Positions 1-64,000 of a DNA stretch of 64,000 nucleotides are shown in pieces. Position 1 is the stretch's first letter, and each line of letters starts with the position of its first letter. The DNA is from a virus. The stretch lies in the IMG/VR virus record IMGVR_UViG_3300037137_001341, positions 52,238 through 116,237 of that record, one strand, 5' to 3'. Made by a program: the position numbers and the translations under genes. Under the pieces are notes generated by a model that made no database searches, was not told the DNA's origin, and was given only the letters and a program-made list of their open reading frames with translations.

Positions 1-430
1 GGTCGCCGATGACGGCGAACTGCGTCCCGAGATCCTCGAAGAACACATCCCCGGACTTCACGAGCAGGAAGTCCTTGCCGGTCCCAGGGAAGCCCCTGGG
101 CGTGCGCCTGTAGATGGCCACGACGGTGCCCACGAACTCCCGGGATGTGCCGCCAGCTGGGTCCCCCGGCTCGGGGCCGCTCGGCGCGATCCGCAGGACG
201 GTCTTGCCGGTGAACTTCTCGGTGATCGAGCCGGGGCCAGTGGGGGCGTTCTCGATGATGTCGAGGGTCGACGGAGCGGTGTCTGTCAGCGTGGTAGCTA
301 CGGCCGTGTCCCACAGAACCTTCGGGGTTGCACCATCGAGGGTGATGATGGCGAAGTGTGGCGGCTGCAGCTGGATCGCAGATGGCCCGGCCGGAGCGAC
401 GTGGAGAGCGACGATGTCACCGTTTGCCAT
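1..430 (-). CDS. Hypothetical beta-rich protein, runs off the window edge; paralog of 434-862
   Basis: Read by hand (not in ORF track): MANGDIVALHVAPAGPSAIQLQPPHFAII...EFVGTVVAIYRR...FFEDLGTQFAVIGD; shares GDxV, QPP, (F/Y)(V/I)GxVVx(I/V)Y pattern with the next gene. Confidence 0.75.
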   Translation of the reverse strand, partial: MANGDIVALHVAPAGPSAIQLQPPHFAIITLDGATPKVLWDTAVATTLTDTAPSTLDIIENAPTGPGSITEKFTGKTVLRIAPSGPEPGDPAGGTSREFVGTVVAIYRRTPRGFPGTGKDFLLVKSGDVFFEDLGTQFAVIGD

Positions 431-433
431 GGC

Positions 434-862
434 TCAGCGATCCTCCAAGGGATGGACGCTTGGGAACGGTAGTTCGTAGTACATCCCGTTCGAGAGCGAA
501 CGAATCAGCACCTTGGTGCTGCCTGGGGCGTTCACGTCGTACACGTCCACGACGCGACCGATGTACGCATCCGAGTAGGGAACGAGCGGCTTCGTCGCCG
601 TCGCAGGTACTGCGATCCCAACGACCACCTTGTCGAGAAAGACGGCCAGCTGGATCGGCGACGCCGTGTCCGTGATCTTGTCCAGGGCAGCGTCCGGGAC
701 GCCCGTCAACGCTTCCTGGCCAGAGAACGTCACGTCGTTCACTCCGGGCGCAGCCGCCGTGACGACGCCGACCAGCGGGGGCTGCGGCTGCAGCGTGCCT
801 GGCGCGAGCGAGCCGACGGTCGACAGCTTCACACGGACTCGATCTCCGGCCACGAACGCCAT
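434..862 (-). CDS. Hypothetical beta-rich protein (tandem paralog)
   Basis: MAFVAGDRVRVK...YIGRVVDVYD...HPLEDR; ATG 7 nt after a -10 box. Confidence 0.75.
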   Translation of the reverse strand: MAFVAGDRVRVKLSTVGSLAPGTLQPQPPLVGVVTAAAPGVNDVTFSGQEALTGVPDAALDKITDTASPIQLAVFLDKVVVGIAVPATATKPLVPYSDAYIGRVVDVYDVNAPGSTKVLIRSLSNGMYYELPFPSVHPLEDR

Positions 863-869
863 GACCCCG

Positions 870-898
870 AGGCTACCGGCTGCCACCACCCGGGTCAA
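870..898 (-). promoter_or_regulatory. Sigma70-type promoter, leaderless
   Basis: TTGACC-17nt-TAGCCT, 7 nt before ATG at 862. Confidence 0.6.
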
Positions 899-1526: not shown

Positions 1527-1864
1527 TACTGAGTGACGATGCGCGACTGGTGGATGTGCGTGCAGTAGAGAACGTCACGTGGGCTCACCGCCACGAGCGC
1601 GAAGTCCTTTCCGCTGCCCGTCAGCATCTCCACCACGAGCATGATCCCGCCTGCGCCATCTGGCTCGACGTGAAGCACGCCGCTCAGGACAGGCACGGCA
1701 ATCGCGCCGCCCTCCTTGTTCATCGCCGGGATATGAGCATACGTGCAGCCGATGTAGGGCTCCCGCAGCTGCAGCATCGCCGGCTTCTCGTTGAAGGCGA
1801 AGTAGCCACTCGGGCGCTCGCCGGTGACCTGTGTCTCTTGTTCCTGCGCGTTTTCTTCAGCCAT
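1526..1864 (-). CDS. Hypothetical protein
   Basis: MAEENAQEQE...; overlapping start/stop with neighbours. Confidence 0.7.
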   Translation of the reverse strand: MAEENAQEQETQVTGERPSGYFAFNEKPAMLQLREPYIGCTYAHIPAMNKEGGAIAVPVLSGVLHVEPDGAGGIMLVVEMLTGSGKDFALVAVSPRDVLYCTHIHQSRIVTQ

Positions 1865-2972
1865 GATGCTTCTCCGCCTCCTGTAGCATGCGCCGGATAG
1901 CCGGCACGTTCTTGTTCTCCCACGACCACTCGGTGCGCAGGGCTTCAGCGTTCTGCTCGGCATGTGCCGCCACGGACGCCCAGTGCGAGTACATGACCCC
2001 GAGCGCCTCCGTGATGGCCTCCACGCTCACCGCCGGCGCCATCGAGCCCGGGAAGTCGTTCATCGAGGCGAGCGGCCCGTGCTCCACGATGACGGCCCCC
2101 GGCGGGTGGTTGCCCAGGAACTCCGCGTGACCGGTGCAGGCTGTCGCGATGACTGGGACGCCGCAGGCGAGCGCCTCCAGGGGAACCATGCCGAAGCCCT
2201 CGCCACGGGACGGCTGGCAGACCGCGTGCATCGCGCTGTACATGCCTGCGACGCCGTACTGCCCGTTCCCCAGTCCCGGCTGCGACTCCACGTCGCCGGT
2301 ACCGAGTCCCAGGTCGGCGCACCACCACCGCACCTTGGACATATGCAGCGGGTTCATCACCACGACGAGCTTCGCCAGCGGCGGCAGGGCCCCAGACCGC
2401 TTGGCGATCTGCCAGGCACGCAGGAGCATCTGCGTGCTCTTCCGCTCCGTCTCGCTGCTGGTCATGTGCAGCACCAGGAACCGCTCCAGCCGGAACTCAT
2501 GCTTCACGGCGTCGCGGAACTTGGGCATCAGCATGTGCACGGCAGGAGTGACTCCGTGCGGCGCAACAACCACGGGCATCGCGTCCGGCACATGCCGCCG
2601 GAGCACCGAGGCAGCCCAGGCGCTCGGAGCCAGGAGGCCGCCCGTGAGCATCCCCCGCGGCAGCACGCCTGACGGCTTCAGGAACGACTCCATCATCCCC
2701 TTCGGGAGTCCCTCGCTGTTCGGGGCGAGCAGGAGCCAGTGCGACTTATGCTCGCCCATGCGGTGCGCGTGCATGAGCCCCATCGGGGGGCCGAGGTTCA
2801 GCGACACCGGCGCGTTCGCCCCGGCTATCGCGTCTTCGCTCTCGAAGTCCATGGGCCATGTCCCTGCGTGCTCGCCAGCAGCCACGAGGGCACGCTCCAT
2901 GCCGCGTGTCACCTGCACGAACGAGTGCTCACCGACGGTGTGGCCGTAGAGGCGGACGCGCGACTCAGCCAA
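1857..2972 (-). CDS. Glycosyltransferase, GT-B / GT4 family
   Basis: PSRGEGFGMVPLEALACGVPVIAT motif, APSAW, PHGV, ERK; probable TTG start. Confidence 0.9.
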   Translation of the reverse strand: MAESRVRLYGHTVGEHSFVQVTRGMERALVAAGEHAGTWPMDFESEDAIAGANAPVSLNLGPPMGLMHAHRMGEHKSHWLLLAPNSEGLPKGMMESFLKPSGVLPRGMLTGGLLAPSAWAASVLRRHVPDAMPVVVAPHGVTPAVHMLMPKFRDAVKHEFRLERFLVLHMTSSETERKSTQMLLRAWQIAKRSGALPPLAKLVVVMNPLHMSKVRWWCADLGLGTGDVESQPGLGNGQYGVAGMYSAMHAVCQPSRGEGFGMVPLEALACGVPVIATACTGHAEFLGNHPPGAVIVEHGPLASMNDFPGSMAPAVSVEAITEALGVMYSHWASVAAHAEQNAEALRTEWSWENKNVPAIRRMLQEAEKHHG

Positions 2973-3174
2973 CGGAGAACCCCGTGGCCTTCGTGTGCAG
3001 CCAGCCGATGAAGCTCCATAGGGACATGCTCGTCTGGTCGAGGCCGGGAGCATGCAGCGCACTCCACCGGATCAGCTTCTTCTTGACCGGCTCCGGCATG
3101 AGTCGCTTGGCCTCGACGCGCTTCATCGCATCGACGAAGGCGTCGCTGAACACAGGTCCGGTCGGGTCAGCCAT
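2965..3174 (-). CDS. Small hypothetical protein
   Basis: MADPTGPVFSD..., GAGG RBS, coupled. Confidence 0.55.
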   Translation of the reverse strand: MADPTGPVFSDAFVDAMKRVEAKRLMPEPVKKKLIRWSALHAPGLDQTSMSLWSFIGWLHTKATGFSVG

Positions 3175-3364: not shown

Positions 3365-3627
3365 TTGAGCATCGTTCCCTTCGCAATGGTCGCCGAGCGG
3401 CGCTGGTACTGCGTCGTCTCCTCGAAGCGTCGCAGTATCGCGAATTGGATGCCGTGCTGCGCGATCTGCGTTGGGGTGATTACTCGCGCCCGAACAAGCG
3501 CGGCCCCGATCGCATCCAGCTGCTGACGGTAGCTGTCGGCTAGAGCGCGCCAGTTGTATTGGGTCTCACCGTTCGGCCCCCTGGTGATCTTCTGTGCCTT
3601 CTTCTTCTTTTTCTTCTTCGTGGCCAT
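3361..3627 (-). CDS. Small basic protein (poly-Lys N-terminus)
   Basis: MATKKKKKKKAQK...; GGAGG upstream; only the 3' part of the tracked 490-aa ORF. Confidence 0.65.
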   Translation of the reverse strand: MATKKKKKKKAQKITRGPNGETQYNWRALADSYRQQLDAIGAALVRARVITPTQIAQHGIQFAILRRFEETTQYQRRSATIAKGTMLK

Positions 3628-4994
3628 CACCCGAACCCTCCTGCCTCGACCAGCTTCTTGTACGCATCCGGGAACCGCGTCGCGATCCGCGCCGCCATCA
3701 TGTTCCCCACGGGCCCGAGCCCGTACTTGGCGTAGAAGTCCGCAGGATGCACGCGCCGCTTCGGCGGCTGCGCCCTGCGGAGCGCGGCCCGTATCAAGAG
3801 CAGCGGGCTCTCCGCCCAGAGCGCGTCCTTCTCCCAGCCGTAGCCTGGATGCACAGGCTCGAAGGACACGTTTGGCGTGTCGGTCTGGCAGATCGAAACG
3901 TCGTCCGCTCCGGCGAACCCCGCCGGGCCGCTCCAGCCCGTGTAGACCATACGGTTGCCGGCGCAGCGAGCATCGAACGCCGGGAGATCCCAGCCCTCGG
4001 CATGTGAGCACGAGACGTAGATGTTGTTGTCCCGATGCAGATGCGCGATCTTCTCCTCCGGGAGCTTCTTCGAGAGCACACGTACGCGCTTGCTGAAGTT
4101 CCCCGGCGTCCAGCCCTTCGCCCGCACCGCCCCCTTGGCAAGCAGCTGCCTGATCGACTCCTCCACCGTGGGGTAGCCCTCCCACTCGCCCCACTCGTAC
4201 GTCTTGATGAACAGCGAGGCTCGCTCCTGCGGGGAGAACTCCAGGAGGAACGCCGTCAGAAGTCGGTGGTAGTTCTTCCGCGGCTCCCACTTGCCGATGG
4301 CGTAGAAGCGCCTGCCCTCCGGCACCGTCTCGGGCCCGCGAGGGGCCGACACGCGGCAGGCGAGGTTCGTGTCCGGGTCGTAGGGCGCCGGGATCGCGTA
4401 GACCTTCCTGACGCCGGCCCGACGGAATATGTCCACGGCCCACTCGCCGTGCACCCACACCTCGGCGCACCGGTTCAGCACGTTCGCGATCTCGGGGGAC
4501 ACCGTCGTGCGCTCCCACGGCGTGTAGACGATGGTGGACTCGTAGACCTTGATCTCGTCGGCGAAGCCGGACCAGCGGGCGCCGGCCGGCACGATCACCT
4601 GCTCCAAGTAGCTCGCGTTGTGGACGACCAGCTGCCGGATCGCGATGGGCACCGCTCCGAGGGATGTGTCCCGGAGGTAGCCGACAGTGGCCCGGATCTG
4701 CGGGTCTACGTCGTCCTCCATCATGTACTTCGGGCGCTGCAGCCGTCGTAGCGTCACCGGGAGCCCCGTACGCGCGAGCGCCTTCACCTGGGCACGAGCG
4801 TGTCGCGCGAGCCCATCCTCCAGGATGTCCCACCCGGCCTGGTACTCGATGCCGCAGGGCAGAAGCGCGTCGCTGCCGGGCGCTACGACGTGGCGCTCAA
4901 GCTCCGCGTCGGTGGGAGCCTGCCCCGTTCCGTCGCCGTCGAGCACGCCCGTCGGAGCGCGGAAGCCGGCCAGCTGCTCAATCAGTTCCGGCAT
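3627..4994 (-). CDS. Glycosyltransferase, GT-B / GT4 family
   Basis: YTPWE, IGKWEPRKN, SHAEGWDLPAFDARCAG motifs. Confidence 0.88.
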   Translation of the reverse strand: MPELIEQLAGFRAPTGVLDGDGTGQAPTDAELERHVVAPGSDALLPCGIEYQAGWDILEDGLARHARAQVKALARTGLPVTLRRLQRPKYMMEDDVDPQIRATVGYLRDTSLGAVPIAIRQLVVHNASYLEQVIVPAGARWSGFADEIKVYESTIVYTPWERTTVSPEIANVLNRCAEVWVHGEWAVDIFRRAGVRKVYAIPAPYDPDTNLACRVSAPRGPETVPEGRRFYAIGKWEPRKNYHRLLTAFLLEFSPQERASLFIKTYEWGEWEGYPTVEESIRQLLAKGAVRAKGWTPGNFSKRVRVLSKKLPEEKIAHLHRDNNIYVSCSHAEGWDLPAFDARCAGNRMVYTGWSGPAGFAGADDVSICQTDTPNVSFEPVHPGYGWEKDALWAESPLLLIRAALRRAQPPKRRVHPADFYAKYGLGPVGNMMAARIATRFPDAYKKLVEAGGFG

Positions 4995-5230: not shown

Positions 5231-5512
5231 TCAGTTCAGGTTCGGGTCGCGCGCCGGCTTCTTCTTCTTGAAGCGCTGGTCCTTCGCTTCCTCGGCTATC
5301 GCCTGAGCGAATATCTCGCGCAGCATCGCTTTGGCCTTGGGGTCTTTCAGGCGCTTCCCTATCGCCGCCAGCGACGCGAACACGTGCTCCAGCGAGATCG
5401 TGACCGTGACCGTCCCCTGGGCCATCTTGCTTTTCACCCACGGAGCACGCTTGCCGATGCGGTGCGCCGTGCGCTTGCTCTTCTTCGAGACCTTCTTCCA
5501 TGTTGCCATCAC
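5231..5512 (-). CDS. Small basic hypothetical protein
   Basis: K/R-rich, GAGGAG RBS. Confidence 0.6.
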   Translation of the reverse strand: MMATWKKVSKKSKRTAHRIGKRAPWVKSKMAQGTVTVTISLEHVFASLAAIGKRLKDPKAKAMLREIFAQAIAEEAKDQRFKKKKPARDPNLN

Positions 5513-5805
5513 TCCTCCTCGATCACACCGAGCACGTCGTCCTCGGACATGAAGATTGAGTCCTCCGCGCCGCGGTTCTCGATCTCCGAGCCAGAGTACT
5601 TGCCGAAGATCACGCGGTCGCCCACCTTCAGCTTCGTCTCGATGAAGTGCCCCTGGTCCGAGAGCCGCCCGCGGCCCGCGGCGGTCACCGTGCCCTTCGT
5701 GAGCTTCTGCTTGGCGTTCTCGGGGATGATGATGCCCCCTTTGGTCACGTCCGTTGCCGGATCACGACGGACCACGATGCGGTTGCCGATGGGTCGAATC
5801 TTCAT
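5509..5805 (-). CDS. groES: Co-chaperonin GroES (Cpn10)
   Basis: MKIRPIGNRIVV, TKGGIIIPENAKQK, LKVGDRVIFGKYSGSEI, MSEDDVLGVIE; GGGAGG RBS. Confidence 0.95.
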   Translation of the reverse strand: MKIRPIGNRIVVRRDPATDVTKGGIIIPENAKQKLTKGTVTAAGRGRLSDQGHFIETKLKVGDRVIFGKYSGSEIENRGAEDSIFMSEDDVLGVIEEE

Positions 5806-6005
5806 AGCGAACCTCCCTTCCTTGATGTCTGCCCTTGCAAGCTCTGCTGCCACATGTCCGACACCCCGGTGAGCCACGACGTGGCGTCACTCTCCGTCTG
5901 GTTGTACAGCGGCGCGTAGCCGATGATCTCCCGCACCGCGTCCACCGTCTCCCGCACCGCCCGCGTCTCTTCTCGGGACCGCTTCCTGTACCGGTTGTGC
6001 CCCAT
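5802..6005 (-). CDS. Small hypothetical protein
   Basis: MGHNRYRKRSREE..., coupled to groES. Confidence 0.5.
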   Translation of the reverse strand: MGHNRYRKRSREETRAVRETVDAVREIIGYAPLYNQTESDATSWLTGVSDMWQQSLQGQTSRKGGSL

Positions 6006-6646: not shown

Positions 6647-6951
6647 CGGCGTGCAGCGGCCATCAGGGCAGAAAGTCCGAAGATAGCCACCGAGCCGAGG
6701 ACCAGGGGCTTCCACCCGACGTCCTTGACAGCGTCCCGGACCATGAACCCGAAGAGCCCGAGCCCGCCGAGGAGGGCGAACGTGCCAGCCTCCTGGTTCT
6801 TCGGCAAGGCGTCCGTCTTGAAGAGGTCCCCATCACGGATCGCGCGGCCCGCCTCGTAGGCGATGAGCCCCCCACCGACGATGCCGGCGAACGCGAGGAC
6901 AGCCGTCTGGGTCTGTACCGTCGTCTCCGGGAGAAGCTCGTAGTCGCTCAT
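6643..6951 (-). CDS. Small membrane protein (3 hydrophobic segments)
   Basis: Three Gly/Ala/Leu-rich stretches, basic C-terminus. Confidence 0.7.
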   Translation of the reverse strand: MSDYELLPETTVQTQTAVLAFAGIVGGGLIAYEAGRAIRDGDLFKTDALPKNQEAGTFALLGGLGLFGFMVRDAVKDVGWKPLVLGSVAIFGLSALMAAARR

Positions 6952-9146
6952 GGGGAGCAGCGCACTTCGGCCCACTGGATCTCTCCCACGCACCTGAGCG
7001 CGGGGGCTCCGCCTGGGAGCACGACACTGAACGTGATCTCGTGGGCCGCCGTCGCTACCGCCGTCATCGTGACTCCGAGCGCCCCAGGATCTAGCCCACC
7101 GGACGCTACGGATGCGTCCACCACGGCGCCTCCCTCGTCATGTGCCAGGACGTCGAACCAGATCGACTGCCGTTGCGTGGATGGCGCCGCACTCTCCGCG
7201 ACGATCAGCATGACGCGGAAGGTGTACGCGAAGTGGTCCCGCGTCAGGAACGGCTTCACCGTGAAGTTGGTGAGGATCCCGACTACGCTCGGGCCGGCGG
7301 GAGTGAGCCGTCCCATAACCACGGTGCCCGACTGACAGCCGCCGTCCGCGCCGAAGCGCGGACCGCCACCGAGTACATGCCCGGACTCTTGCATCGAGTA
7401 GCCGTCCTCTCCGCCCGCATGGGAAGCGAACGCGGTCGACGTGCTGTTCTGGCCCTGCGCGTGGGAGTCGTTACCGCTTGCCGTGCACGAGATACCCTCG
7501 GCGTGCGAGTTACTGCCGCTTGCCAGTGCGCTCGCGCCCTCGGCGTGGCTCGCGATGCCCTGCGCAACGCTGTGGAATCCCTCGGCATGTGACGTAGGAC
7601 CGGACGCGACGCTCGTGTCTCCTTCGGCATGAGAGTTCAGACCACTGGCGATCGTTGTGATGCCTTCCGCGTGGGCATTATCCCCACTTGCAAGAGCGCT
7701 GTTCCCTTCGGCGTGCGAACGATCCCCCTGAGCGTTGCATGCGTCGCCTTCGGCGTGAGAAGCGAAACCGCTAGCAGATCCGCTGCTGCCCTCTACGTGC
7801 GAGTTCACGCCAAGGCTCTGTCCGGCCGATCCCTCGGCATGTGAGTTCGCTCCCTGCGCCAGTGTTCCTACACCCTCGGAGTGAGAGTTCCCTCCCGTCG
7901 CCTGCGTCGCGTTGCCCTCGGCGTGAGACACCTGACCGAGCGCTTGCGTCGAGCTTCCTTCGGAGTGCGAGAAGTCTCCTACGGCATGCGTCGAGAGCCC
8001 TTCGGCATGTGCCGAGTCACCGTTCGCCAGAGTCGCACTGCCCTCGGCGTGGGATGATGGCCCGTTCGCATGCGCCTGGAGGCCCTCGGAGTGAGACTGC
8101 AGGCCGTTGGCCTGCGTCTGCCTTCCTTCGGCATGAGCGAAGTTCGCCGTCGCCTGCGACTGGACGCCTTCAGCGTGCGATGCCTCACCGCTCGCGACCG
8201 TCGAGTGCCCCTCAGAATGTGACGAGAGCCCGGATGCCAGTGATGCCGTTCCCTCGGCATGTGACGCGACCCCAGATGCTGTCGTGAAGTTCGGGCCTTC
8301 GCCCTGCCCCTCGGCGTGGCTGTTCGTCCCGGTCGCTCTCGTAAGGTGGTTCTCCGCGTGAGATCGGGTGCCGCTCGCGAGGGTCTGCTCGCCCTCCGCG
8401 TGAGAGTGGTCCCCGCTCGCCGTACAGGACGCTCCCTCGGCGTGTGACACGTCTCCGCTGGCCGTGCTGTCGGCCCCCTCGGCGTGCGAGTGCCTGCCGG
8501 TGGCATCACAGGACACGCCCTCGGCGTGCGAGTTCTCGCCGCTGGCGATCGATAGTTGCCCTTCGGCATGTGACCGCAGACCGCTCGCCTGGGTCTGAGT
8601 TCCCTCGCAGTGGGACGCCTCGCCGCTCGCCGTCGAGTTGAGGCCCGTGGCGAAACTCGCGTGCCCGCTGGCCGTCGTCCCGTCGTTCTCGGCACATGCG
8701 TACAGACCGGTAATCGTGACGTTGTTCTTGACGCAGCCCTCCACGATCGGGCCGGCTATAAGCGTCCCGAAGATCACCAGCCCCATCACTCGTTGGCCCT
8801 TCGCCGCTCCGGCGATCTGGACATCGAGGATTGGGTCCGTGATTGTGAGCGCCTCGATCTGCTTCTGCAGATCCTCGGCAGTCGCTGCGAGCAGGATCCG
8901 CAGGTTGTCGATGTTCGCCCCGCCGACCATATTGGACCGGTCAGCGCCCTCGACCTCCAGGAAGAACATGTGCCCGTCGCCCGCGCCCGTGAGCGTGATG
9001 GATGCGACGGTCGAGTTCGGGAGAGCCTCAAACAGAGGAACTATTTTTGCGAGTATCTGCGCCCCCATGTCTTCCGCTGTTGCAGACTGAATTACCGCGC
9101 TTATCGCATTGGCGGTACCACCGAGGATTGTTCCGTATCTCGACAT
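6948..9146 (-). CDS. Putative spike/receptor-binding protein with YadA-head-like beta-roll repeats
   Basis: About 30 tandem 14-aa repeats AxGxxSHAEGxxxx between distinct N- and C-terminal domains; AAGGAG RBS. Confidence 0.8.
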   Translation of the reverse strand: MSRYGTILGGTANAISAVIQSATAEDMGAQILAKIVPLFEALPNSTVASITLTGAGDGHMFFLEVEGADRSNMVGGANIDNLRILLAATAEDLQKQIEALTITDPILDVQIAGAAKGQRVMGLVIFGTLIAGPIVEGCVKNNVTITGLYACAENDGTTASGHASFATGLNSTASGEASHCEGTQTQASGLRSHAEGQLSIASGENSHAEGVSCDATGRHSHAEGADSTASGDVSHAEGASCTASGDHSHAEGEQTLASGTRSHAENHLTRATGTNSHAEGQGEGPNFTTASGVASHAEGTASLASGLSSHSEGHSTVASGEASHAEGVQSQATANFAHAEGRQTQANGLQSHSEGLQAHANGPSSHAEGSATLANGDSAHAEGLSTHAVGDFSHSEGSSTQALGQVSHAEGNATQATGGNSHSEGVGTLAQGANSHAEGSAGQSLGVNSHVEGSSGSASGFASHAEGDACNAQGDRSHAEGNSALASGDNAHAEGITTIASGLNSHAEGDTSVASGPTSHAEGFHSVAQGIASHAEGASALASGSNSHAEGISCTASGNDSHAQGQNSTSTAFASHAGGEDGYSMQESGHVLGGGPRFGADGGCQSGTVVMGRLTPAGPSVVGILTNFTVKPFLTRDHFAYTFRVMLIVAESAAPSTQRQSIWFDVLAHDEGGAVVDASVASGGLDPGALGVTMTAVATAAHEITFSVVLPGGAPALRCVGEIQWAEVRCSP
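7400..8700 (-). repeat. 42-bp-period coding repeat (SHAEG repeats)
   Basis: Recurrent ccctcggcgtg / ccttcggcatg on the + strand. Confidence 0.85.
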
Positions 9147-11073: not shown

Positions 11074-11460
11074 CTACACGCCCTTCTTGATCCACCAGGC
11101 AGCGAGGCCGACCGAGAGGACCACCATGCCGGCGATGCCGAGCGCGGCCTTGATCGCGTCGTCCTTGACCATGTCGACCTTGGCGAACGTGATCTCCATC
11201 TGCTTCGCGATCTCGGGACGGATCACCTCGTCCATCACCTTCTTCACGAGCTTCGGCCCGTAGAGGTTCGCCTCGTCCTCCATGTCGTTGATGAGCTTCG
11301 TCTCCAGCGCGTTGATGTCCGGCGTGAGCGAAGCCCACGTGTCGGCGACCATCGCGTCGACCGGCACGACGATCTCCGTGTCCTTGCCCCACGGAAACGG
11401 CGCGTCGACCTTGTAGGTCTTCGTGGGACCGGGGCCTGCGCCGACGCCGTGGTAGCTCAC
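11074..11460 (-). CDS. C-terminally anchored membrane protein
   Basis: GTG start, SYHGVGAG..., PWGKDTEI, TM + KK. Confidence 0.8.
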   Translation of the reverse strand: MSYHGVGAGPGPTKTYKVDAPFPWGKDTEIVVPVDAMVADTWASLTPDINALETKLINDMEDEANLYGPKLVKKVMDEVIRPEIAKQMEITFAKVDMVKDDAIKAALGIAGMVVLSVGLAAWWIKKGV

Positions 11461-12098: not shown

Positions 12099-12105
12099 CT
12101 GGCGC

Positions 12106-13856: not shown

Positions 13857-13885
13857 GTGTTCCTCGTTCCTGAGCCTACTCCGGG

Positions 13886-14113
13886 TCAGTCCCCTACGAA
13901 AGCCTCGATGCGGGGCCGCAGAAAGTACATGGCGATCCCGCCGGCTACGACGCCGACCCCGAGCCAGGCCCAGCCGGGCACACCGGCGCCGATCTCGTCC
14001 GCCCCGAGCCCAACGGCCCTCCCGAGGATCCCCATGGGGCCGCCCACGTTGTCCATCGTGGGCCCGAGCGCCTCGGCGCCAGCCGCAAGAGACCTCTTCT
14101 GCTGATCGGTCAT
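13886..14113 (-). CDS. Small membrane protein
   Basis: AVGLGAD; TM VPGWAWLGVGVVAGGIAMYFL. Confidence 0.75.
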   Translation of the reverse strand: MTDQQKRSLAAGAEALGPTMDNVGGPMGILGRAVGLGADEIGAGVPGWAWLGVGVVAGGIAMYFLRPRIEAFVGD

Positions 14114-14334: not shown

Positions 14335-14336
14335 GT

Positions 14337-19040: not shown

Positions 19041-19053
19041 GCGTGCCTCCGCT

Positions 19054-56820: not shown

Positions 56821-56869
56821 GGCGTACGACCTCGACGGGACGTCGACATGGGTTCCCCTCGGAGGCGAA

Positions 56870-57046
56870 CTACGCGACCCGTTGGGTCGATTCGGACTTG
56901 CAGCGCTTGGCGAACTCCCTGACGGATCGCCGGATAATCTCGGTGCGCGGGAGCTTCTCGATTCGAGCGGCTTCATCCACGAGTCCGAGATCCTCTTCGT
57001 CCAACGGGACCTGCACGACCGTCTTCTTGTTGCTGGGCATCTCCAT
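56870..57046 (-). CDS. Ribbon-helix-helix (CopG-like) regulator
   Basis: VVQVPLDEEDLGLVDEAARIEKLPRTEIIRRSVREF. Confidence 0.8.
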   Translation of the reverse strand: MEMPSNKKTVVQVPLDEEDLGLVDEAARIEKLPRTEIIRRSVREFAKRCKSESTQRVA

Positions 57047-57074
57047 GATCTTCTTGTTCTCCGGGGAGCAGCGG

Positions 57075-57109
57075 ACCCTATGTGAAACCCACGCAGTGGT
57101 CAAGCTATC
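57075..57109 (-). promoter_or_regulatory. Sigma70-type promoter of the RHH/replication operon
   Basis: TTGACC-17nt-TAGGGT, with GCTATC abutting the -35. Confidence 0.6.
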
Positions 57110-57129
57110 TGTTACGTTAGCCTTACGTG

Positions 57130-57819
57130 TTACTTCCGCTTCGGCTTGCAATCCTTCGGATCTCCATGGATCCAGCCGGTCTGCGGCGACCACGTGGCGG
57201 GCATCCCCTCGGGCACCACGGTCTGGCAGCGGCGGCACGGGAGGGCGAAGCGTGCCGGGTAGATGTGTCCTACCTTGCTCGGAGCTAGCCACTCGTCGCT
57301 GTCGAACACCTGCGGGTATCTCCCGGTGCCGCCGAAGTCGTTGGCGCGGTCACCGCGCCCGAGCTTGCCGGATGTCTTCTTCTGTTCCTTCTTCAGATCG
57401 AAGCAGGAGCGCAGATCGGACGGCGGCACAACGAAGCGTCCTGTCGTCTCATTCCAGTAGACCGCGCGCTTCGCGTCCTTGCTGCCGGTCCAGCCGGCAA
57501 GCACGAACGTCGGCGCGTCGCGGTCGATCACGAGGATGAATACCGCGTCGTCCGGGTCATCCGTCTTCACGAGTAGCTCTCCAGCCGCGGAGCTAGCCGT
57601 GCGGATGATCACGCAGGATGGGGCACGTCCGAGCCGCTGCCATATCTTCCAGTCCTTCAGCGCGGTGAAGGCGCCGTCCCACTTCCTGTGCAGCGCGACG
57701 GCGACGGCCATCTCGGCGATGGCGGCATGTACCCCGGTGGGTGTACCGCGCTTCTTGCCGATCTCCGTCGCCGCCGCGATCTCGTCAACGCCGAGCTTCA
57801 CCGTGAAGCGCGGTGTCAC
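57130..57819 (-). CDS. Hypothetical protein with C-terminal Zn-binding motif
   Basis: AEMAVA, LAGW; ARFALPCRRC...H...C. Confidence 0.65.
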   Translation of the reverse strand: MTPRFTVKLGVDEIAAATEIGKKRGTPTGVHAAIAEMAVAVALHRKWDGAFTALKDWKIWQRLGRAPSCVIIRTASSAAGELLVKTDDPDDAVFILVIDRDAPTFVLAGWTGSKDAKRAVYWNETTGRFVVPPSDLRSCFDLKKEQKKTSGKLGRGDRANDFGGTGRYPQVFDSDEWLAPSKVGHIYPARFALPCRRCQTVVPEGMPATWSPQTGWIHGDPKDCKPKRK

Positions 57820-58829
57820 TCGGCAACTTCGCCCATCTTGGTCTGTGTGTCGGGGATATGTGCCGCCGACTCCCTTCGCTCTTCGTGACGCGCTTCCTGT
57901 CGCGCGTCCAGGGCTTGTTCTTGCCGCTCCTGCTGCTGGCGCCGCCGTCGCTGCGGTTGCGGCGCTGGAGTCACTGCTGGGGCCGCGGCGTCTGCGAGCC
58001 GGTCGAGCGCGCTCGGTTGCGCCTCTCCAAGCTGACGTTCCGGCTGCGGCGCCGCCAGTGAGCCGACGTCAAGGTCGAGCCCCGCGAGCGCGTTCCGTCC
58101 CGCCTCCTCGGAGTCCTCGGAGACCATCGCCCTCGCGAGATCCGAGTCCGCGCTGAGCGTCAGCGTGTCACAGAGCCGCCGGAGCGCGGTCTTGCTCCAC
58201 ATGGCCTCGGTGTTGTCGATCCAGGGACCGTAGCCCTTCTTCGCCGCATCGCTCGCGCCCATGGCCTTCTTGATCTCCGGCGCGCCGATGACGACGAAGC
58301 GGTCGTAGTTCCCGACCTCCTTCGAGTGCCAGATGACCTTCGCGTAGGCGTACTTGAGCGCGCCGCGCACCTCCGAGTCCGTGGGCCTGTGCGCGAGCTT
58401 CGCCGGCTCGTAGGCGTACTCGAACTGGTCGTTCTCGAACACGACGCGGGCGTAGATGTCCCGGATCTCCTTGTCGCTGCCGAACGCGAGCTTGCGCAGC
58501 CCCTTGTACCCGGTCTGGAACCCGCACACGAAGGTGTTTGTGTTTTTGTTCCAGCGGGGGATCAGGTAGCCCTCACCGAACACGTTGTCGAGCGAGAGCC
58601 CGACCTGCGCGGCCTGGATGACGGCGCCGATGACGCTCACCGGGTCGCACTCCAGGATGCGCGGCGTGGTCTGCACCGCGGTGAGGTAGACGCGGAACAG
58701 GCGCTTGCCGTCGATGTGTCTCGGTAGCGCTGAGAGGATCTGTGCCTGCACCTTGTCGCTCATCAAGAGCGAACGGAGGCTGGCCATCTTCTGTCGTGCG
58801 GGGATGATCTCGTTGTTGGACATGCTCAT
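57816..58829 (-). CDS. recT: RecT-family single-strand annealing recombinase
   Basis: ALPRHID, CDPVSVIGAVIQAAQVGL, GEGYLIP, FQTGYKGL, PW...EAMWSKTALRRL. Confidence 0.93.
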   Translation of the reverse strand: MSMSNNEIIPARQKMASLRSLLMSDKVQAQILSALPRHIDGKRLFRVYLTAVQTTPRILECDPVSVIGAVIQAAQVGLSLDNVFGEGYLIPRWNKNTNTFVCGFQTGYKGLRKLAFGSDKEIRDIYARVVFENDQFEYAYEPAKLAHRPTDSEVRGALKYAYAKVIWHSKEVGNYDRFVVIGAPEIKKAMGASDAAKKGYGPWIDNTEAMWSKTALRRLCDTLTLSADSDLARAMVSEDSEEAGRNALAGLDLDVGSLAAPQPERQLGEAQPSALDRLADAAAPAVTPAPQPQRRRRQQQERQEQALDARQEARHEERRESAAHIPDTQTKMGEVAE

Positions 58830-58846
58830 GTTCTCCTTCTTCTGAC

Positions 58847-59812
58847 TCAGACGTCGATGCGGTTGCTGAACTTCAGGATGCGCGTCGCGGCGACCACGTG
58901 CGCCTTCACGGGGTACGCGGCGCGCGTCTCGAACTTGTAGATGCCCTTGTTCTCCGGGAGGAGCCCGCGCTTCGCGGTGCCCATGAGCGCACTGATCTCG
59001 CGCTTCGCCTCCTTCTCCTCTTCCTCGGCGCTCTTGCGCCGCTCGGCGGCATCGAGCAGCTTGTCGTGCCACTTGAGCACGTCGGCGGGCAGCTGGATGA
59101 CGCGCCCGTCCTCGCGCATCTTCTTCAGCGTCGAGATCGTGGAGTCGCTCGCGTCGAGCGGCGGCGGGGTGCCCTCCTGGACCATCTGCCAGAACGCCTG
59201 CGTCTTCGTGATCAGCGTCTTCAGGAACTTCTCGTTGCGGGCGACGTGCGTGAAGATGAACTTCTGGCCGCCGATGAGGCATGCGATCGACGTGTAGAGG
59301 CGCGTCGTCACGAGCATCTGCTGCTGCACCTGGATCTGGTAGTAGAGTGGGGCCTCTTCACTCCAGTCCGCTGCGTATCGCTCGCCGGTGGTCTTACACT
59401 CCAGCAGGCCCGCGGTCACCGACCTGGGGTTCTGCTGCTCGTAGTCCGGCGTCGCGAGCAGCCAAGGGAACGCGCGTGAGCGGAGCAGGTGCGCCCCGAG
59501 CGGGTGCTTCCACACCTCGCGCCCCGTCTCCTCCGCGAACGTCTCGCCGACGATCGCTTCGAGCTTGCGACCCCACTTCATGCGCTCGTTGTCCGGCTGC
59601 GGATCGATCTCGCCGCGCTTCCGTTGGTACAGAGAGAACGGGCTCTCCCACGGGTTCACCCCGAAGATGATCGCGGCCTCGCTCGCGCCGATCCCGGTGT
59701 CACGCGCCTTGAGCCACCCCGCACGATCCTTCTCCGAGTCTGCGACCGTGAGGAACGGGCGGCGCCCGCTCCTGCTCCCCTTGCTCATCTGCCTGCGCTG
59801 CGGTATCTTCAT
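58847..59812 (-). CDS. YqaJ-like (lambda-type) exonuclease
   Basis: WLKARDTGIGASE, WGRKLE, LLATPD, LLECKT, YYQIQVQQQM. Confidence 0.93.
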   Translation of the reverse strand: MKIPQRRQMSKGSRSGRRPFLTVADSEKDRAGWLKARDTGIGASEAAIIFGVNPWESPFSLYQRKRGEIDPQPDNERMKWGRKLEAIVGETFAEETGREVWKHPLGAHLLRSRAFPWLLATPDYEQQNPRSVTAGLLECKTTGERYAADWSEEAPLYYQIQVQQQMLVTTRLYTSIACLIGGQKFIFTHVARNEKFLKTLITKTQAFWQMVQEGTPPPLDASDSTISTLKKMREDGRVIQLPADVLKWHDKLLDAAERRKSAEEEEKEAKREISALMGTAKRGLLPENKGIYKFETRAAYPVKAHVVAATRILKFSNRIDV

Positions 59813-61587: not shown

Positions 61588-62123
61588 AGATGAAGCGGGA
61601 CGATGTCTCTGGCCCTGACTACATGGGCGAGTACTTCGAGTCCGGCTACGAGGCTGGCATCCGGGGCGCGCCGCTTCTGCCGGTGCCTGAGCCGCTGAAG
61701 CTGCAGTTTCGTTCGTACGGCTTCGTGTACGAGCACACGCATGTGAAGCGCGCGGACTCCTTCGATCTGGATGCGCCTCCCGATGAGGTTCTTCAGGCCC
61801 CCATGGAGCCCGGATTTGCGTTCTGCCTGAGATGTCAGGTGACCGCGCCGTACCGACCCAAGTGGCTGCTCGTGGCGACGCCGGGCTTCCAGATCCAGCG
61901 CCTGACTGTGGACCGTGTGTATATGTTGCTGGACGACGTCGATGGAGACCTCTATCTGACCACCGTGTGGGACACGATCACGGATGTGCTCCAGCTGGAG
62001 CGGTTGCGGCTGCCGGGCCACACCATCGACCGCAACGGCACATTGGAGCTTCAGGCCAAGCTCCGTCCCGGCAACGTCGCCACCCGGTTCAGCGCGATGG
62101 TCGTCGGCGAGGAGGCAGCCTGA
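61584..62123 (+). CDS. Beta-rich hypothetical protein (possible single jelly roll)
   Basis: APYRPKWLLV, FQIQRLTV, LELQAK, RFSAMVVG. Confidence 0.6.
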   Translation: MKMKRDDVSGPDYMGEYFESGYEAGIRGAPLLPVPEPLKLQFRSYGFVYEHTHVKRADSFDLDAPPDEVLQAPMEPGFAFCLRCQVTAPYRPKWLLVATPGFQIQRLTVDRVYMLLDDVDGDLYLTTVWDTITDVLQLERLRLPGHTIDRNGTLELQAKLRPGNVATRFSAMVVGEEAA

Positions 62124-62554
62124 TGGCCCGGATAATCGGCCTCGGGGTGCGTAACCAGTACGGGCGCATGGTCTGGCATCGGCTTCCGGCACGTGTCAAC
62201 CGTCCCGCTAGGCTCCATGCCTGCCTGATTCGCCCGGAGGAGGCGCTGTACGAACTCCTGGACGCGGAGGGTCCCAGGCTCCGCGAGTGGCGGCCGGTCC
62301 ACCCGGCGCGTGCGCCGCAAGTGATCGCCGCCGTGCTGCAGGCACGGGCACAACAGCTGCCTCGGCTGCATCGCGAGCAGATCGAACTCCCGCCTCCTCG
62401 GCGCATCGGCGGTCCGGTGATCCCGTACCGCCTGCAGCCCTATCTTGCCGCCCTCGAACTCGTGGCCATGATGTCGCTCGCTACGCGAGCACTCGAAGGA
62501 GACCTATGCACAAAGACAAGCACCAGGCAGCGATCGATGCGCTCTCCGAACTGA
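62123..62554 (+). CDS. Hypothetical protein
   Basis: GGAGG RBS, TGATG coupling. Confidence 0.55.
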   Translation: MARIIGLGVRNQYGRMVWHRLPARVNRPARLHACLIRPEEALYELLDAEGPRLREWRPVHPARAPQVIAAVLQARAQQLPRLHREQIELPPPRRIGGPVIPYRLQPYLAALELVAMMSLATRALEGDLCTKTSTRQRSMRSPN

Positions 62555-63198
62555 TGCGGAGCGAACTCGACGGCGACATGCGCGGGAGGTTCGCGTGCGT
62601 GAACCGGCTCGCGGTGCTCGCGCAGAAGCTCCAGATCGAGATGAACCCGCGCCCCGAGGACATGGACGAACAGCAGAATGAGTACGGCATAAACGTCGCC
62701 GACCACGGCATGATCAGGGGTGGCAACGCCATGTACGGCGGCGATCAGCAGCAGATGGCCCGTGAGATGCTCGCGATGCTCGGCCCCGCGATGGGCGGCC
62801 TCCAGGGCAACAACGAGGCGAAGAAGCGGGAGTCGATGGCTCGGGAACTGAACGAGCTACTCGATGCCAGGAACCGTTTTCTATTCGGCACCGGAGCCCA
62901 GGACCCGGAAGCTGTGGCCGCTGCGGCACGACTCGCGAAACGGATCAACGTGCTCACCGAACTGGTGAGCCAGGAAGAAGAAGAGGAGAAGCCCCATGCA
63001 CAAGCCCCAGAACTTCACGTGGTTCCTGCCGTCGATGTACGGCGACATCAAGCTGGAGAAGGTCACGGACAAGACGACGCGCCTCACGCTCGTCGGGCTC
63101 TCCCCGACGGAGAAGGAGGCCGTGAAGGCGCTCTTCGCGCGGGCGGTGAAGCCGGGGGCCTTCAAGAAGGTGTGGACATCAGAGACGGCGCTGCGTGA
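62506..63198 (+). CDS. Hypothetical helical protein
   Basis: AAGGAG RBS then MHKDKHQ; 3' end overlaps the next gene. Confidence 0.6.
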   Translation: MHKDKHQAAIDALSELMRSELDGDMRGRFACVNRLAVLAQKLQIEMNPRPEDMDEQQNEYGINVADHGMIRGGNAMYGGDQQQMAREMLAMLGPAMGGLQGNNEAKKRESMARELNELLDARNRFLFGTGAQDPEAVAAAARLAKRINVLTELVSQEEEEEKPHAQAPELHVVPAVDVRRHQAGEGHGQDDAPHARRALPDGEGGREGALRAGGEAGGLQEGVDIRDGAA

Positions 63199-63856
63199 CG
63201 TCGACCTCGGCTCCCTGAAGGAGCAGATGCTCTCGCTCGACGCGCCGATCTCGCAGGTGCAGGACTTCCTGCAGAAGAAGCTGAAGCCACACCGGAAGCA
63301 GGTGTCCGTGGTGCGCTTCGCAAGCGGGCGGCTCGAAGAGCTTTCCGAGGCGACGCTGCAGGTCATCGACGGCTCCGGGGAGGATGTGCCTGGGACGGTC
63401 GTGGAGGCTCAGGCGGTGGAGCCGGTCGTGGAGAAGAAGGAGAAGCCGGCACCCAGGAAGGAGGACAAGCCCGCGGTGGCGGCGACGGTGGGGCAGCCGG
63501 CGCTCGGGTGCCCGGTACCGGAGTTCGACGAGGTCGAGATCCGGGCGACACGTGTCCTCAAAGCGTTCCTGACGCCGGAGCAGATCGAGGACTTCAACCG
63601 GCGGCAGCAGTTCGTGGCCGTCGGCGCGGACACGGGGCACAGGTACCTGCTCACGTCGCGGCAGTCGCGGCACGCCTTCGAGCAGGCGAGCTTCCGCTCG
63701 CTCTACGACATGGACGAGCGGCAGGCGCTCTGCGTACATGACTGGGAGGTGCCGGCCGCCGAGGAGCTTCTCGGTTTGTTCCTGCATGTATCCCTGCCGG
63801 GGCTCGAAGGCTTCGTGCGGTCCATGCCGGACCGGGACGGAGTGCTGCACCGGTGA
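62996..63856 (+). CDS. Hypothetical protein
   Basis: GAGGAG RBS; FLTPEQ..DF, GADTGHRYLL, LCVH motifs. Confidence 0.75.
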   Translation: MHKPQNFTWFLPSMYGDIKLEKVTDKTTRLTLVGLSPTEKEAVKALFARAVKPGAFKKVWTSETALRDVDLGSLKEQMLSLDAPISQVQDFLQKKLKPHRKQVSVVRFASGRLEELSEATLQVIDGSGEDVPGTVVEAQAVEPVVEKKEKPAPRKEDKPAVAATVGQPALGCPVPEFDEVEIRATRVLKAFLTPEQIEDFNRRQQFVAVGADTGHRYLLTSRQSRHAFEQASFRSLYDMDERQALCVHDWEVPAAEELLGLFLHVSLPGLEGFVRSMPDRDGVLHR

Positions 63857-64000
63857 GCATCCTGAAGATCCTTGGGGCGATGGGCCTGCCGACGAAGCTG
63901 CCGAACGGCCACGATCTCGGCTGCCTGTGCAACGAGTGTCACGCCCTCCGCGCCGCCCGGCAGGAAGCGATCGGTGAGCGCATCCGAGCCGGCAAGGAGC
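63853..64000 (+). CDS. Partial hypothetical protein with Cys/His motif
   Basis: GTGA overlap; HDLGCLCNECH; runs off the window. Confidence 0.5.
   Translation, partial: MSILKILGAMGLPTKLPNGHDLGCLCNECHALRAARQEAIGERIRAGKE

Follow-up and report, generated by a model that had tools for sequence, protein, structure and literature searches.

Gene content and modelled folds suggest a large tailless, membrane-containing bacterial virus with no recognisable packaging motor

We analyzed a 64-kb stretch of DNA (hereafter the window) that forms the last part (C1:52238-116237) of an IMG/VR virus record made up of one 116,237-bp contig and covers more than half of the genome. On balance, and with only modest confidence, we favor the view that it belongs to a large bacterial virus that has no tail, encloses an inner membrane and a protein-condensed DNA core in a jelly-roll shell, and uses no packaging motor. 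The original prediction from the same DNA had proposed a tailless membrane virus, and the gene content supports it. We infer the tailless, membrane-containing icosahedral architecture itself from gene content and from middling fold matches, all with Z <8. Coordinates below are window positions, and the genes lie on the minus strand unless noted.

A total of 167 genes were called by GC3 across the record, 83 in the window and the rest in the other 52 kb, and all proteins were scanned against Pfam and PHROGs. GC content is 63-68% along the whole window, and no tRNAs were found. The record is collinear with a 140-kb relative but circularly permuted against it, and both of its ends land in a single variable interval. 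Six relatives have direct terminal repeats (111.6, 125, 136.2, 138.4, 143.7, and 179.4 kb). Family contigs span 111-182 kb, and the frequency of terminal repeats among them points to a genome that is either circular or circularly permuted. We conclude that the record, which comes from sediment metagenomes, is a nearly complete 116-kb genome from an uncultured bacterial virus lineage. The size contrast drawn earlier is real: prokaryotic double-jelly-roll viruses, most with a packaging ATPase, have genomes of roughly 7-18 kb (PMC5894146).

Phage-like genes had been reported without the hallmarks of tailed phages, and the scans of all 167 proteins confirmed this: Pfam and PHROGs gave no match to a terminase, portal, HK97 capsid, tape measure, tail tube, sheath, or baseplate, and no FtsK/A32 packaging ATPase in the window or the other 52 kb. 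The sole "portal" match (phrog_15528, 44 residues) was rejected. It sits in a NUDIX hydrolase (40587-41015), and the family behind it also scores in 14 of 14 control genomes. Six-frame scans of this genome and four relatives were blank for TerL_ATPase, FtsK_SpoIIIE, Phage_portal, and Phage_capsid, while Pox_A32 gave one match, to the P-loop only (12.6 bits). Terminase_6N was blank in nine relatives, among them the six with terminal repeats, and FtsK_SpoIIIE matched once in five further relatives, again at the P-loop only (14.8 bits). Walker-A scans of four genomes left the DnaB helicase as the only conserved P-loop protein.

The family has no tailed-phage hallmark genes: the HK97 capsid, portal, and terminase genes that were to be sought in the flanks turned up neither there nor in the rest of this nearly complete genome, nor in nine relatives. 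A packaging ATPase was correctly said to be invisible in the window, but the suggestion that it lies outside did not hold: by the measure of sequence profiles and Walker motifs, the whole family lacks any recognisable packaging ATPase. A motor might still be deviant or supplied by the host, and, since folds were modelled for two proteins, another gene might encode a divergent protein of the HK97 or double-jelly-roll type. The family-wide lack of a packaging ATPase makes a PRD1-type packaging mechanism unlikely; by analogy, a protein-condensed core like that of SPV1 would be the better model.

The conserved block contains a trio of genes (18132-20992) previously singled out as beta-rich capsid candidates, two of which we folded with AF2; both models are jelly-roll sandwiches. 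The best-conserved protein of the family (57-80% identity in relatives) is a 259-aa single jelly-roll protein (20213-20992) and a candidate major capsid protein. A strong ribosome-binding site, AAGGAGA, lies 7 nt upstream of its ATG, and none of its 677 homologues is named. Its model, of moderate confidence (pLDDT 74.6, pTM 0.77), finds its best capsid match in SPV1 (6oj0; VIA Z 5.6-6.1, 135-136 of 178 residues aligned), with TasA at Z 6.6. Other jelly-roll matches include TNF-like proteins, PRD1 P5, and capsid proteins of picornavirus, SGIV, HHIV-2, and SH1.

The adjacent 327-aa protein (19054-20037), a candidate second capsid protein, consists of a 60-residue N-terminal helix followed by a jelly-roll domain (residues 85-327). 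Its reading frame is open to 20163, and its homologues, 706 in number and all unnamed, start at residue 43. The model, also a beta-sandwich jelly roll of moderate confidence (pLDDT 68.5), was matched by Foldseek to SPV1 (6oj0_Z, E 3e-3; VP4 in BFVD, probability 1.00). VIA returned Z scores of 7.7 for PBCV-1, 6.8 for HHIV-2, 6.5 for SH1, 6.3 for HCIV-1, and 6.2 for PRD1 P3, and 6.5 for SPV1 with 140 of 178 residues aligned. When re-aligned, the best 50 matches were mostly viral jelly-roll capsid proteins, including those of SPV1, SH1, HHIV-2, HCIV-1, PRD1 (P3), PR772, FLiP, PBCV-1, SGIV, and vaccinia (D13). Among named language-model clusters, those of the PM2 P2 and PRD1 P3 capsid families come nearest (0.76-0.77), which we treat as a lead only. 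All fold matches fall under the tool's own noise mark of Z 8, a Z of 5.6-7.7 being middling, and the non-capsid jelly rolls TasA, peptidylglycine monooxygenase, and TNF-like proteins score on par with capsid proteins. On these models, the conserved block codes for at least two jelly-roll proteins.

The third member of the trio, a beta-rich 302-aa protein (18132-19040), is syntenic in eight relatives at 33-81% identity. It has no Pfam, PHROG, or atlas name and no profile similarity to its two trio neighbors, and its atlas neighbors are labelled mostly Uroviricota. Each of the eight relatives examined has these genes in one order: basic protein, two jelly rolls, beta-rich protein, and tail-anchored protein.

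The basic core protein that had been predicted is indeed present. This 837-aa protein (21148-23661) carries 197 K+R against 44 D+E (net charge +153) and is a candidate DNA-condensing protein tethered to the membrane. About 515 Lys/Arg/Ala-rich residues with an internal duplication precede hydrophobic helices (approximately residues 520-620) and a C-terminal part that is conserved and repeats G-V/L-G-E-Y/F-F motifs. It belongs to no Pfam or PHROG family. In relatives, where its C-terminal third is 38-69% identical, its gene is in every case the one immediately upstream of the jelly-roll pair.

Membrane proteins are numerous, if fewer than the "about 30" small ones first counted: 23 of the 83 window proteins have a membrane helix under a strict criterion (Kyte-Doolittle, 19-residue window, ≥1.7). 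A C-terminal membrane helix followed by 2-4 Lys/Arg occurs in 16 proteins genome-wide and in 14-18 per genome across the family. Helix scans found such helices in conserved proteins of 298 aa (16857-17753, basic tail) and 231 aa (34325-35020, KK tail) and in a 414-aa protein (26517-27761, RGRR tail). An 850-aa protein with two central membrane helices (27796-30348) is variable among relatives, being found in G001 only, at 37% identity. Topologically, the basic C-termini of the tail-anchored proteins are not easy to reconcile with a vesicle from the cell membrane.

The first large gene of the conserved block encodes an 880-aa protein (36134-38776) that is possibly a scaffold or size-determining protein. 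It comprises an N-terminal domain of ~310 aa, a charged coiled coil of ~280 aa, a Pro/Gln-rich linker, and a C-terminal domain. It has no P-loop and no Pfam, PHROG, or PDB sequence match, and it is kept in G001, G003, and G005 at 29-44% identity. Among the best-conserved genes (54-74% identity in three relatives) is that of a 196-aa transglutaminase-like cysteine protease (35017-35607), a candidate maturation or sorting enzyme. The Transglut_core match (PF01841, E 4e-6) came from a joint scan of window proteins and was tied to this gene by its Cys motif, GDCDD. The motif G[LVIMF]G occurs 55 times in the block against 26.4 expected, and 36 times elsewhere against 43.7 expected.

Two proteins resemble chaperones: a GroES (Cpn10) homologue (5509-5877; PF00166, E 2.7e-27) and a basic protein (11457-12320; net charge +32) with a Cys-rich, zinc-ribbon-like center and a C-terminal J domain (DnaJ PF00226, E 1.2e-6, residues 226-281), kept in all three relatives compared. 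The predicted spike corresponds to an acidic 732-aa fiber or spike candidate (6948-9146) with YadA-head repeats (PF05658, E 7e-6; phrog_25468, E 1.2e-72), whose N-terminal 125 aa recur in C1:10106-11212 and four smaller paralogues. Three glycosyltransferases are encoded around the jelly-roll genes. Two, of GT4 type by Pfam and PHROGs (1857-3062 and 3627-4994), are kept in all compared relatives; the third (Glyco_trans_1_3, PF13528, E 6.9e-84) forms with a metallophosphoesterase (PF00149, E 1.5e-12) the only plus-strand pair within the block (23643-25900).

The NUDIX gene, ThyX (45154-46065), and RuvC (47779-48300) serve nucleotide metabolism and recombination. Pfam and PHROGs define a replication and recombination module (54044-59812) with a primase-DnaB helicase (54044-55927), a replication initiator (55924-56976), and a YqaJ/RecE-like exonuclease (58847-59812). 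The genome also encodes a giant tyrosine recombinase and, outside the window, the peptidoglycan hydrolases Amidase_2, M23, and M15. Of the starts, 55% have a Shine-Dalgarno core in front of them, compared with a background of 22%. The DnaB/DnaC-type replication genes, RuvC, YqaJ, hydrolases, and Shine-Dalgarno motifs support a bacterial host, as predicted, although on other grounds: sigma-70-like promoters are not enriched in 17001-37000 (1 site against 1.5 expected), and the PG-binding domains cited amount to one weak PG_binding_1 match in the window (E 5.9e-4).

We weighed other explanations for this gene set. A virus of a new lineage might have a particle other than an icosahedral shell around a membrane: an enveloped, pleomorphic, ovoid, or rod-shaped one with a nucleoprotein core, in which the jelly-roll proteins act as surface, matrix, or receptor-binding proteins that form no lattice. 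The absent packaging ATPase, the giant candidate condensing protein, the many membrane proteins, and the presence of TasA and TNF-like proteins among the middling fold matches would all suit such a particle. We nevertheless think it unlikely, as upright capsid jelly rolls from icosahedral viruses that contain a membrane predominate among the re-aligned matches of 19054-20037, and the two jelly-roll genes are the best conserved and adjacent, as in SPV1-like and SH1-like viruses.

That the record is instead a plasmid-like or mobile element, whose membrane and beta-rich block builds a cell-surface or vesicle structure, seems improbable. Virion hallmark genes are not recognisable by sequence, and the giant tyrosine recombinase, glycosyltransferases, and YadA-like adhesin repeat could belong to such an element. 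Pfam scans found no relaxase, type IV secretion ATPase, or partition genes, however, no plasmid with DNA similarity was found, and the family has several endolysin-type hydrolases, phage-type replication genes, and free-standing genomes with terminal repeats. Copies fall in metagenome bins of six different taxa, which might indicate a mobile element, but such inconsistency is expected if viral contigs were mis-binned. Just as improbable, in our view, is a tailed phage in which divergence has carried the capsid, portal, terminase, and tail genes past profile detection. Tailed phages typically have terminal repeats and genomes as large as the 111-180 kb seen here, the genes for replication and recombination look phage-like, the 880-aa protein with its coiled coil resembles a tape measure, and the atlas neighbors of 18132-19040 mostly bear Uroviricota labels. 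Yet the terminase large subunit, a P-loop ATPase, is usually easier to find than any other phage gene, and here there is no terminase and no conserved P-loop protein except DnaB. Pfam and PHROGs found portal, capsid, tube, sheath, and baseplate families in none of the proteins, and the models of the two best-conserved structural proteins show jelly rolls rather than HK97.

For the tailless virus that we favor, the nearest analogue would be the 20-kb archaeal virus SPV1 (Portogloboviridae). SPV1 has VP4 and VP10, each a single jelly-roll protein, together with a nucleoprotein core and an inner membrane; its few assignable genes include those for a glycosyltransferase and a methyltransferase, and its ICTV profile lists no packaging ATPase among nine (PMC8459092). 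Its chains are the best capsid match for 20213-20992 and among the best for 19054-20037, our candidate single jelly-roll shell proteins. The likeness extends to the missing ATPase, the many predicted membrane proteins, the glycosyltransferase and methyltransferase and, going by the genes, a dedicated protein that would condense the genome into a core beneath the membrane. SPV1 differs in its hyperthermophilic archaeal host and size, the family here being apparently bacterial and 111-180 kb. It shares no sequence similarity with the family (fold Z 5.6-6.5, middling), its VP1 is small where the candidate core protein has ~600-840 aa and membrane helices, and the family has its own helicase-primase, protease, chaperones, and fibers.

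Viruses of the P23-77, SH1, HHIV-2, and HCIV-1 type likewise have two different single jelly-roll proteins from adjacent genes, with membrane proteins in the same module (fold Z 6.2-6.8, 118-145 residues aligned). Their genomes are 17-31 kb, and an FtsK/HerA-type packaging ATPase adjoins the capsid genes; the family here lacks this ATPase and any sequence similarity. The bacterial viruses PRD1 and PM2 (Tectiviridae and Corticoviridae) lack a tail and have an inner membrane, vertex spikes, and small membrane proteins, a plan the genes here suggest, and matches to them are weak (PRD1 P3, Z 6.2; the P2/P3 clusters). They have a double jelly roll within one capsid protein, whereas our two models are each single. 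Chloroviruses, iridoviruses, and poxvirus D13 offer a jelly-roll shell over an inner membrane, as may exist here, with genomes of at least 100 kb, their own glycosyltransferases, and a cysteine protease for maturation, for which we have a candidate. These large cytoplasmic DNA viruses of eukaryotes also have tail-anchored virion membrane proteins, and PBCV-1, EhV-201, SGIV, and D13 are among the fold matches. Their eukaryotic hosts, double jelly-roll capsids, A32-type ATPase, and own polymerases have no counterpart found here, and the resemblance is one of design, not detectable ancestry.

In the particle we envisage, the jelly-roll proteins would form an icosahedral shell above an inner lipid layer studded with tail-anchored proteins. 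The genome would be condensed by the 837-aa basic protein rather than pumped into a preformed shell, and the hydrophobic and C-terminal parts of that protein would tie the DNA core to membrane and shell, an arrangement resembling the core of SPV1. Trimming of proteins at the common G-(L/V/I/M/F)-G motif is probably the task of the transglutaminase-like protease, and the GroES and J-domain proteins probably help folding or assembly. The YadA-like fiber would bind the host, and the peptidoglycan hydrolases would serve entry or lysis. To our knowledge, condensing and enclosing 116-180 kb in this motor-free way has no precedent among bacterial viruses. The particle-building block looks like that of small jelly-roll viruses with a membrane, in a genome six to ten times as large as theirs.

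The sequence lies on a single 116,237-bp contig (C1; the window covers bases 52,238-116,237), which IMG/VR classes as linear and CheckV rates as 85% complete. GC content is 63-68% throughout. True frames here have very high GC3, so we called genes from codon-position GC, which gave 167 genes in the contig and 83 in the window, nearly all of the latter on the minus strand. No tRNAs were found in the window and no terminal repeats on the contig. Comparison at the protein level with three relatives, each taken in full, showed that the contig is collinear with, and circularly permuted relative to, a 140-kb relative. Both contig ends map to a single variable interval in that genome, so little is likely to be missing.

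A marker gene occurs on 21 IMG/VR contigs of up to 182 kb, with family contigs spanning 111-182 kb, and six relatives carry direct terminal repeats (111.6, 125.0, 136.2, 138.4, 143.7 and 179.4 kb). Some members, such as a 179,401-bp contig with terminal repeats (L044) and a 182,423-bp contig (L052), are about 60% larger than the 116-kb genome, with about 60 kb extra. The sequence comes from sediment metagenomes, and no RNA run is listed among the sequencing runs that contain it. Megablast of W15001-40000 (window coordinates) against phage and plasmid collections gave no match, nor did tblastn of the capsid candidate against phages; helicase matches were to distant DnaB genes only, at 25-28% identity. 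We found no description of such a family in full-text literature, which is not proof that it is unpublished. The virus-like genomes form a coherent family that is both large and abundant, and their genes are of bacterial type.

To define what the family lacks, we scanned all 167 proteins against Pfam and PHROGs. Neither the window nor the other 52 kb contained a match to terminase, portal, HK97 capsid, scaffold, tail tube, sheath, baseplate or tape-measure families. Six-frame profile scans, which are independent of gene calls, were likewise blank for TerL_ATPase (PF03354), Phage_portal (PF04860) and Phage_capsid (PF05065) in this genome and four relatives, and nine relatives, of which six carry terminal repeats, were blank for Terminase_6N (PF03237). 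Of the genes whose presence in the flanks would have spoken against the original prediction, namely HK97 capsid, portal and terminase, neither kind of scan gave a match. One PHROGs match labeled "portal" (phrog_15528) covers 44 residues inside a NUDIX hydrolase (W40587-41015). It also appears in 14 of 14 control genomes and therefore does not mark a portal.

The original prediction also suggested that a packaging ATPase may lie outside the window. The large terminase subunit of tailed phages is a P-loop ATPase joined to a nuclease, and tailless viruses of the PRD1 type use an FtsK/HerA-type enzyme. FtsK_SpoIIIE (PF01580) was blank in six-frame scans of this genome and four relatives, and gave one P-loop-only stretch (14.8 bits) in five further relatives. 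Pox_A32 (PF04665) gave one such stretch in five genomes (12.6 bits), which lies within a DnaC-like protein from a single relative. Both matches are below curated cut-offs and are not conserved. In a Walker-A scan of four genomes, the DnaB helicase was the one P-loop protein to be conserved, and no ATPase lies beside the capsid candidates, which are flanked by a basic protein and a tail-anchored protein. Given these scans, the expected ATPase is absent from the family rather than displaced to the flanks.

The family does share a minus-strand block (approximately W6,000-40,000), where the genes common to all four compared genomes concentrate. At its core, eight of eight relatives keep the same gene order: a basic 837-aa protein (W21148-23661), proteins of 259 aa (W20213-20992), 327 aa (W19054-20037) and 302 aa (W18132-19040), and a tail-anchored 298-aa protein. 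The 259-aa protein, preceded by a strong ribosome-binding site, is the best conserved in the family (57-80% identity). It has 677 homologues and the 327-aa protein 706, all unnamed and without Pfam domains; a full HMMER scan gave 106 clusters at 50% identity. The 302-aa protein fell only into unnamed viral clusters in a protein atlas. Profiles of the three capsid candidates found nothing meaningful by sequence among solved structures, and a search for the genomes of short (~200-aa) capsid-candidate homologues yielded one weak locus. We also considered whether the three are paralogues, and profile-profile comparison showed no similarity among them.

In the AlphaFold2 model of the 327-aa protein (53-row alignment, pLDDT 68.5), a beta-sandwich comes after an N-terminal helix of 60 residues. 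The model's top Foldseek match in the PDB is a chain of Sulfolobus polyhedral virus 1 (SPV1; 6oj0_Z, E 3e-3), and among BFVD viral models SPV1 VP4 matched with probability 1.00 but a TM-score of 0.26-0.43. A Foldseek-independent search returned PBCV-1 (Z 7.7) and HHIV-2 (Z 6.8). VIA re-alignment of the top 1,000 Foldseek chains gave mostly viral jelly-roll capsid proteins: SH1 (6.5), SPV1 (6.5, 140/178 residues), HCIV-1 (6.3), PRD1 P3 (6.2) and HHIV-2 (6.2), and also FLiP, PR772, PBCV-1, SGIV and D13. The 259-aa protein is modeled as a single eight-stranded sandwich (pLDDT 74.6, pTM 0.77), with matches to TasA (Z 6.6), SPV1 (Z 5.6-6.1), TNF-like proteins, PRD1 P5 and many capsid jelly rolls. 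None of the match lists for these two folded proteins contains an HK97 fold.

The models thus support a jelly-roll fold class well for both proteins. All Z values are below the tool's stated noise mark of 8, and homology of either protein to any one family is therefore not well supported. The nearest named language-model clusters, the PM2 P2 and PRD1 P3 capsid families (0.76-0.77), serve as a lead only. Predicting the two proteins as a complex gave a score of 0.00, which delivers no verdict and is evidence neither way. The expectation that W18132-20992 would encode jelly-roll folds accordingly holds for two of the three products, at match scores under the noise mark. Overall, we have a family without head-tail or packaging-motor genes whose conserved block encodes at least two predicted jelly-roll proteins.

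Other genes encode candidate membrane and core components. A membrane helix is predicted in 23 window proteins. In 16 proteins here, and in 14-18 per relative, such a helix leads straight into 2-4 Lys/Arg residues that end the protein (...LRRKR, ...LRKK, ...TRRRR), and most of these tail-anchored proteins are encoded in the block. The basic protein has approximately 515 Lys/Arg/Ala-rich residues (197 K+R, net charge +153), then hydrophobic helices and conserved C-terminal repeats of G-V/L-G-E-Y/F-F. A G-(L/V/I/M/F)-G motif occurs 55 times in block proteins versus 26.4 expected, compared to 36 versus 43.7 expected elsewhere. A well-conserved transglutaminase-like cysteine protease (W35017-35607) and three glycosyltransferases are encoded in the same block. 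Across W6643-36093 and the same block in three relatives (G001, G003 and G005), G-L/V-G often sits just before or inside the C-terminal helix. This three-part layout of motif, helix and basic tail recalls sortase- or exosortase-type sorting signals, and the cysteine protease is conserved alongside.

Several other block genes deserve mention. A GroES homologue lies at W5509-5877 (PF00166, E 2.7e-27), and a basic, Cys-rich, family-conserved protein (W11457-12320) ends in a J domain whose HPD motif is replaced by NAD. A YadA-repeat fibre shares its N-terminal domain with another fibre-like protein and with four small paralogues, making a six-member family in which a domain of approximately 125-170 aa heads the two fibre-like proteins and stands alone four times (W6948-9146 and W48948-49832; C1:10106-11212, 11894-12409, 13449-14087 and 13975-14547, in contig coordinates). 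In an 880-aa family-wide protein (W36134-38776), about 280 residues form a charged coiled coil and another stretch is a Pro/Gln-rich linker; the protein matches neither a Pfam nor a PHROGs family and lacks a P-loop. By sequence, neither it nor a 661-aa protein found anything meaningful among solved structures.

Outside the structural block, the replication and recombination genes are phage-like and of bacterial type. The window encodes a primase-DnaB protein (W54044-55927), a replication initiator (W55924-56976), a YqaJ/RecE exonuclease (W58847-59812), RuvC, ThyX and NUDIX, and the remainder of the contig encodes Amidase_2, M23 and M15 cell-wall hydrolases, a GDSL lipase and an FkbM methyltransferase. 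A Shine-Dalgarno core precedes 55% of starts versus 22% in the background. Together, DnaB, RuvC, the peptidoglycan hydrolases and the Shine-Dalgarno sites point to a bacterial host without singling out a group. Sigma-70 promoters, previously offered as a pointer to the host, showed no enrichment in our scan. Metagenome-bin labels of related contigs (Pseudomonadota, Pirellulales, Pseudomonadales, Gemmatimonadota, Methanomicrobiales, Burkholderiales) are mutually inconsistent, and we treated them as mis-binning for that reason.

Three plus-strand loci also stood out. A 1,451-aa protein (C1:47881-52236), far above ordinary integrase size, ends 1 nt before window base 1 and has a tyrosine-recombinase domain at approximately residues 257-583 (PF00589, E 1.2e-17; phrog_1, E 8.8e-21), its remaining residues being unassigned; its counterparts in two relatives have 1,279 and 1,369 aa. 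An RNA-repair-like pair (C1:18846-21525) combines a CCA/poly(A)-polymerase-type nucleotidyltransferase bearing a tRNA-ligase phosphodiesterase-like tail with a P-loop kinase (AAA_33, polynucleotide-kinase PHROG). A MoxR-type AAA+ ATPase and VWA-domain protein pair (C1:39200-41673) is common with only one relative, G003.

Among known virus groups, PRD1/PM2-type viruses (Tectiliviricetes) have an FtsK/HerA-type (A32-like) packaging ATPase, which is absent here, and an inner lipid membrane, to which the 14-18 tail-anchored proteins per genome here, mostly clustered in the structural block, point only indirectly. Each of our models is a single jelly-roll domain, and the matches to this group (PRD1 P3 at Z 6.2, clusters at 0.76-0.77) are weak. 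P23-77/SH1-type viruses build their capsids from two adjacent, upright single jelly-roll proteins. Two adjacent genes here gave jelly-roll models, with matches to SH1, HHIV-2 and HCIV-1 (Z 6.2-6.8) that are under the noise mark. No sequence or profile similarity was found, and the packaging ATPase that those viruses encode beside their capsid genes is missing. In a survey of prokaryotic double-jelly-roll viruses, genomes measured approximately 7-18 kb and an FtsK/HerA ATPase was present in most; its authors remark that a P-loop ATPase is hard to miss (PMC5894146).

The closest described design is that of SPV1 (Portogloboviridae), which combines a nucleoprotein core and an inner membrane with proteins of the single jelly-roll type, VP4 and VP10 (PMC8459092). 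VIA aligned 135-140 of 178 residues to SPV1 at Z 5.6-6.5, with no sequence similarity. A packaging ATPase is absent here, and the basic protein is a putative condensing protein. SPV1 has few assignable genes, including a glycosyltransferase and a methyltransferase, in a 20-kb genome with an archaeal host (PMC8459092); that genome is circular, whereas the family contigs here are 111-182 kb and carry bacterial-type genes.

We weighed four readings. We lean toward a large tailless bacterial virus with a jelly-roll shell, an inner membrane, a protein-condensed DNA core and no packaging motor. In such a particle, an icosahedral jelly-roll shell would lie over the membrane, and the DNA would be condensed by the giant basic protein, not pumped in. 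The tailless part of the original prediction agrees with the missing head-tail genes and the two jelly-roll models; the arrangement of shell over membrane is something we infer. Some other particle architecture could accommodate the same genes, with structural matches all under the noise mark, and is unlikely beside two adjacent, highly conserved jelly-roll genes. A non-viral element, which would fit the missing head-tail families, is very improbable given the phage-type replication genes, the cell-wall hydrolases and the lack of DNA similarity to plasmids. Least probable is a very divergent tailed phage (Caudoviricetes, Duplodnaviria). The replication genes are phage-like, but the terminase, portal and tail genes of that group were not found by Pfam/PHROGs or six-frame scans, and for its HK97 capsid no capsid family was matched by sequence, the two best-conserved structural proteins being modeled as jelly rolls.

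A further step from the tailless virus is plausible, though somewhat less likely than not: a high-rank undescribed lineage with a single jelly-roll shell, an inner membrane, a pre-condensed DNA core, no motor, and its own sorting or maturation system. That system might comprise the C-terminal helix with its basic tail, the G-hydrophobic-G motif and the transglutaminase-like cysteine protease. If so, bacteria would have, in this family, an equivalent of SPV1 as well as of the large eukaryotic viruses that contain membranes.

The tailless phages known to contain a membrane are tiny, and bacterial viruses characterised so far with genomes larger than approximately 20 kb are, to our knowledge, all tailed phages. 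The chance that this family represents a new lineage of high rank, with an assembly principle of its own, is substantial. If the tailless reading is true, the tailed-only rule would be broken by an abundant family, with about 700 homologues per capsid candidate and genomes of up to 180 kb. It would also be the first large bacterial virus without a DNA-packaging motor, raising the question of how 100-180 kb of DNA is condensed and enclosed. The two jelly-roll genes offer simple markers for such viruses, to which current tools give no label beyond unclassified or tailed phage, and the family would supply a bacterial data point for the origin of large membrane-containing jelly-roll viruses.
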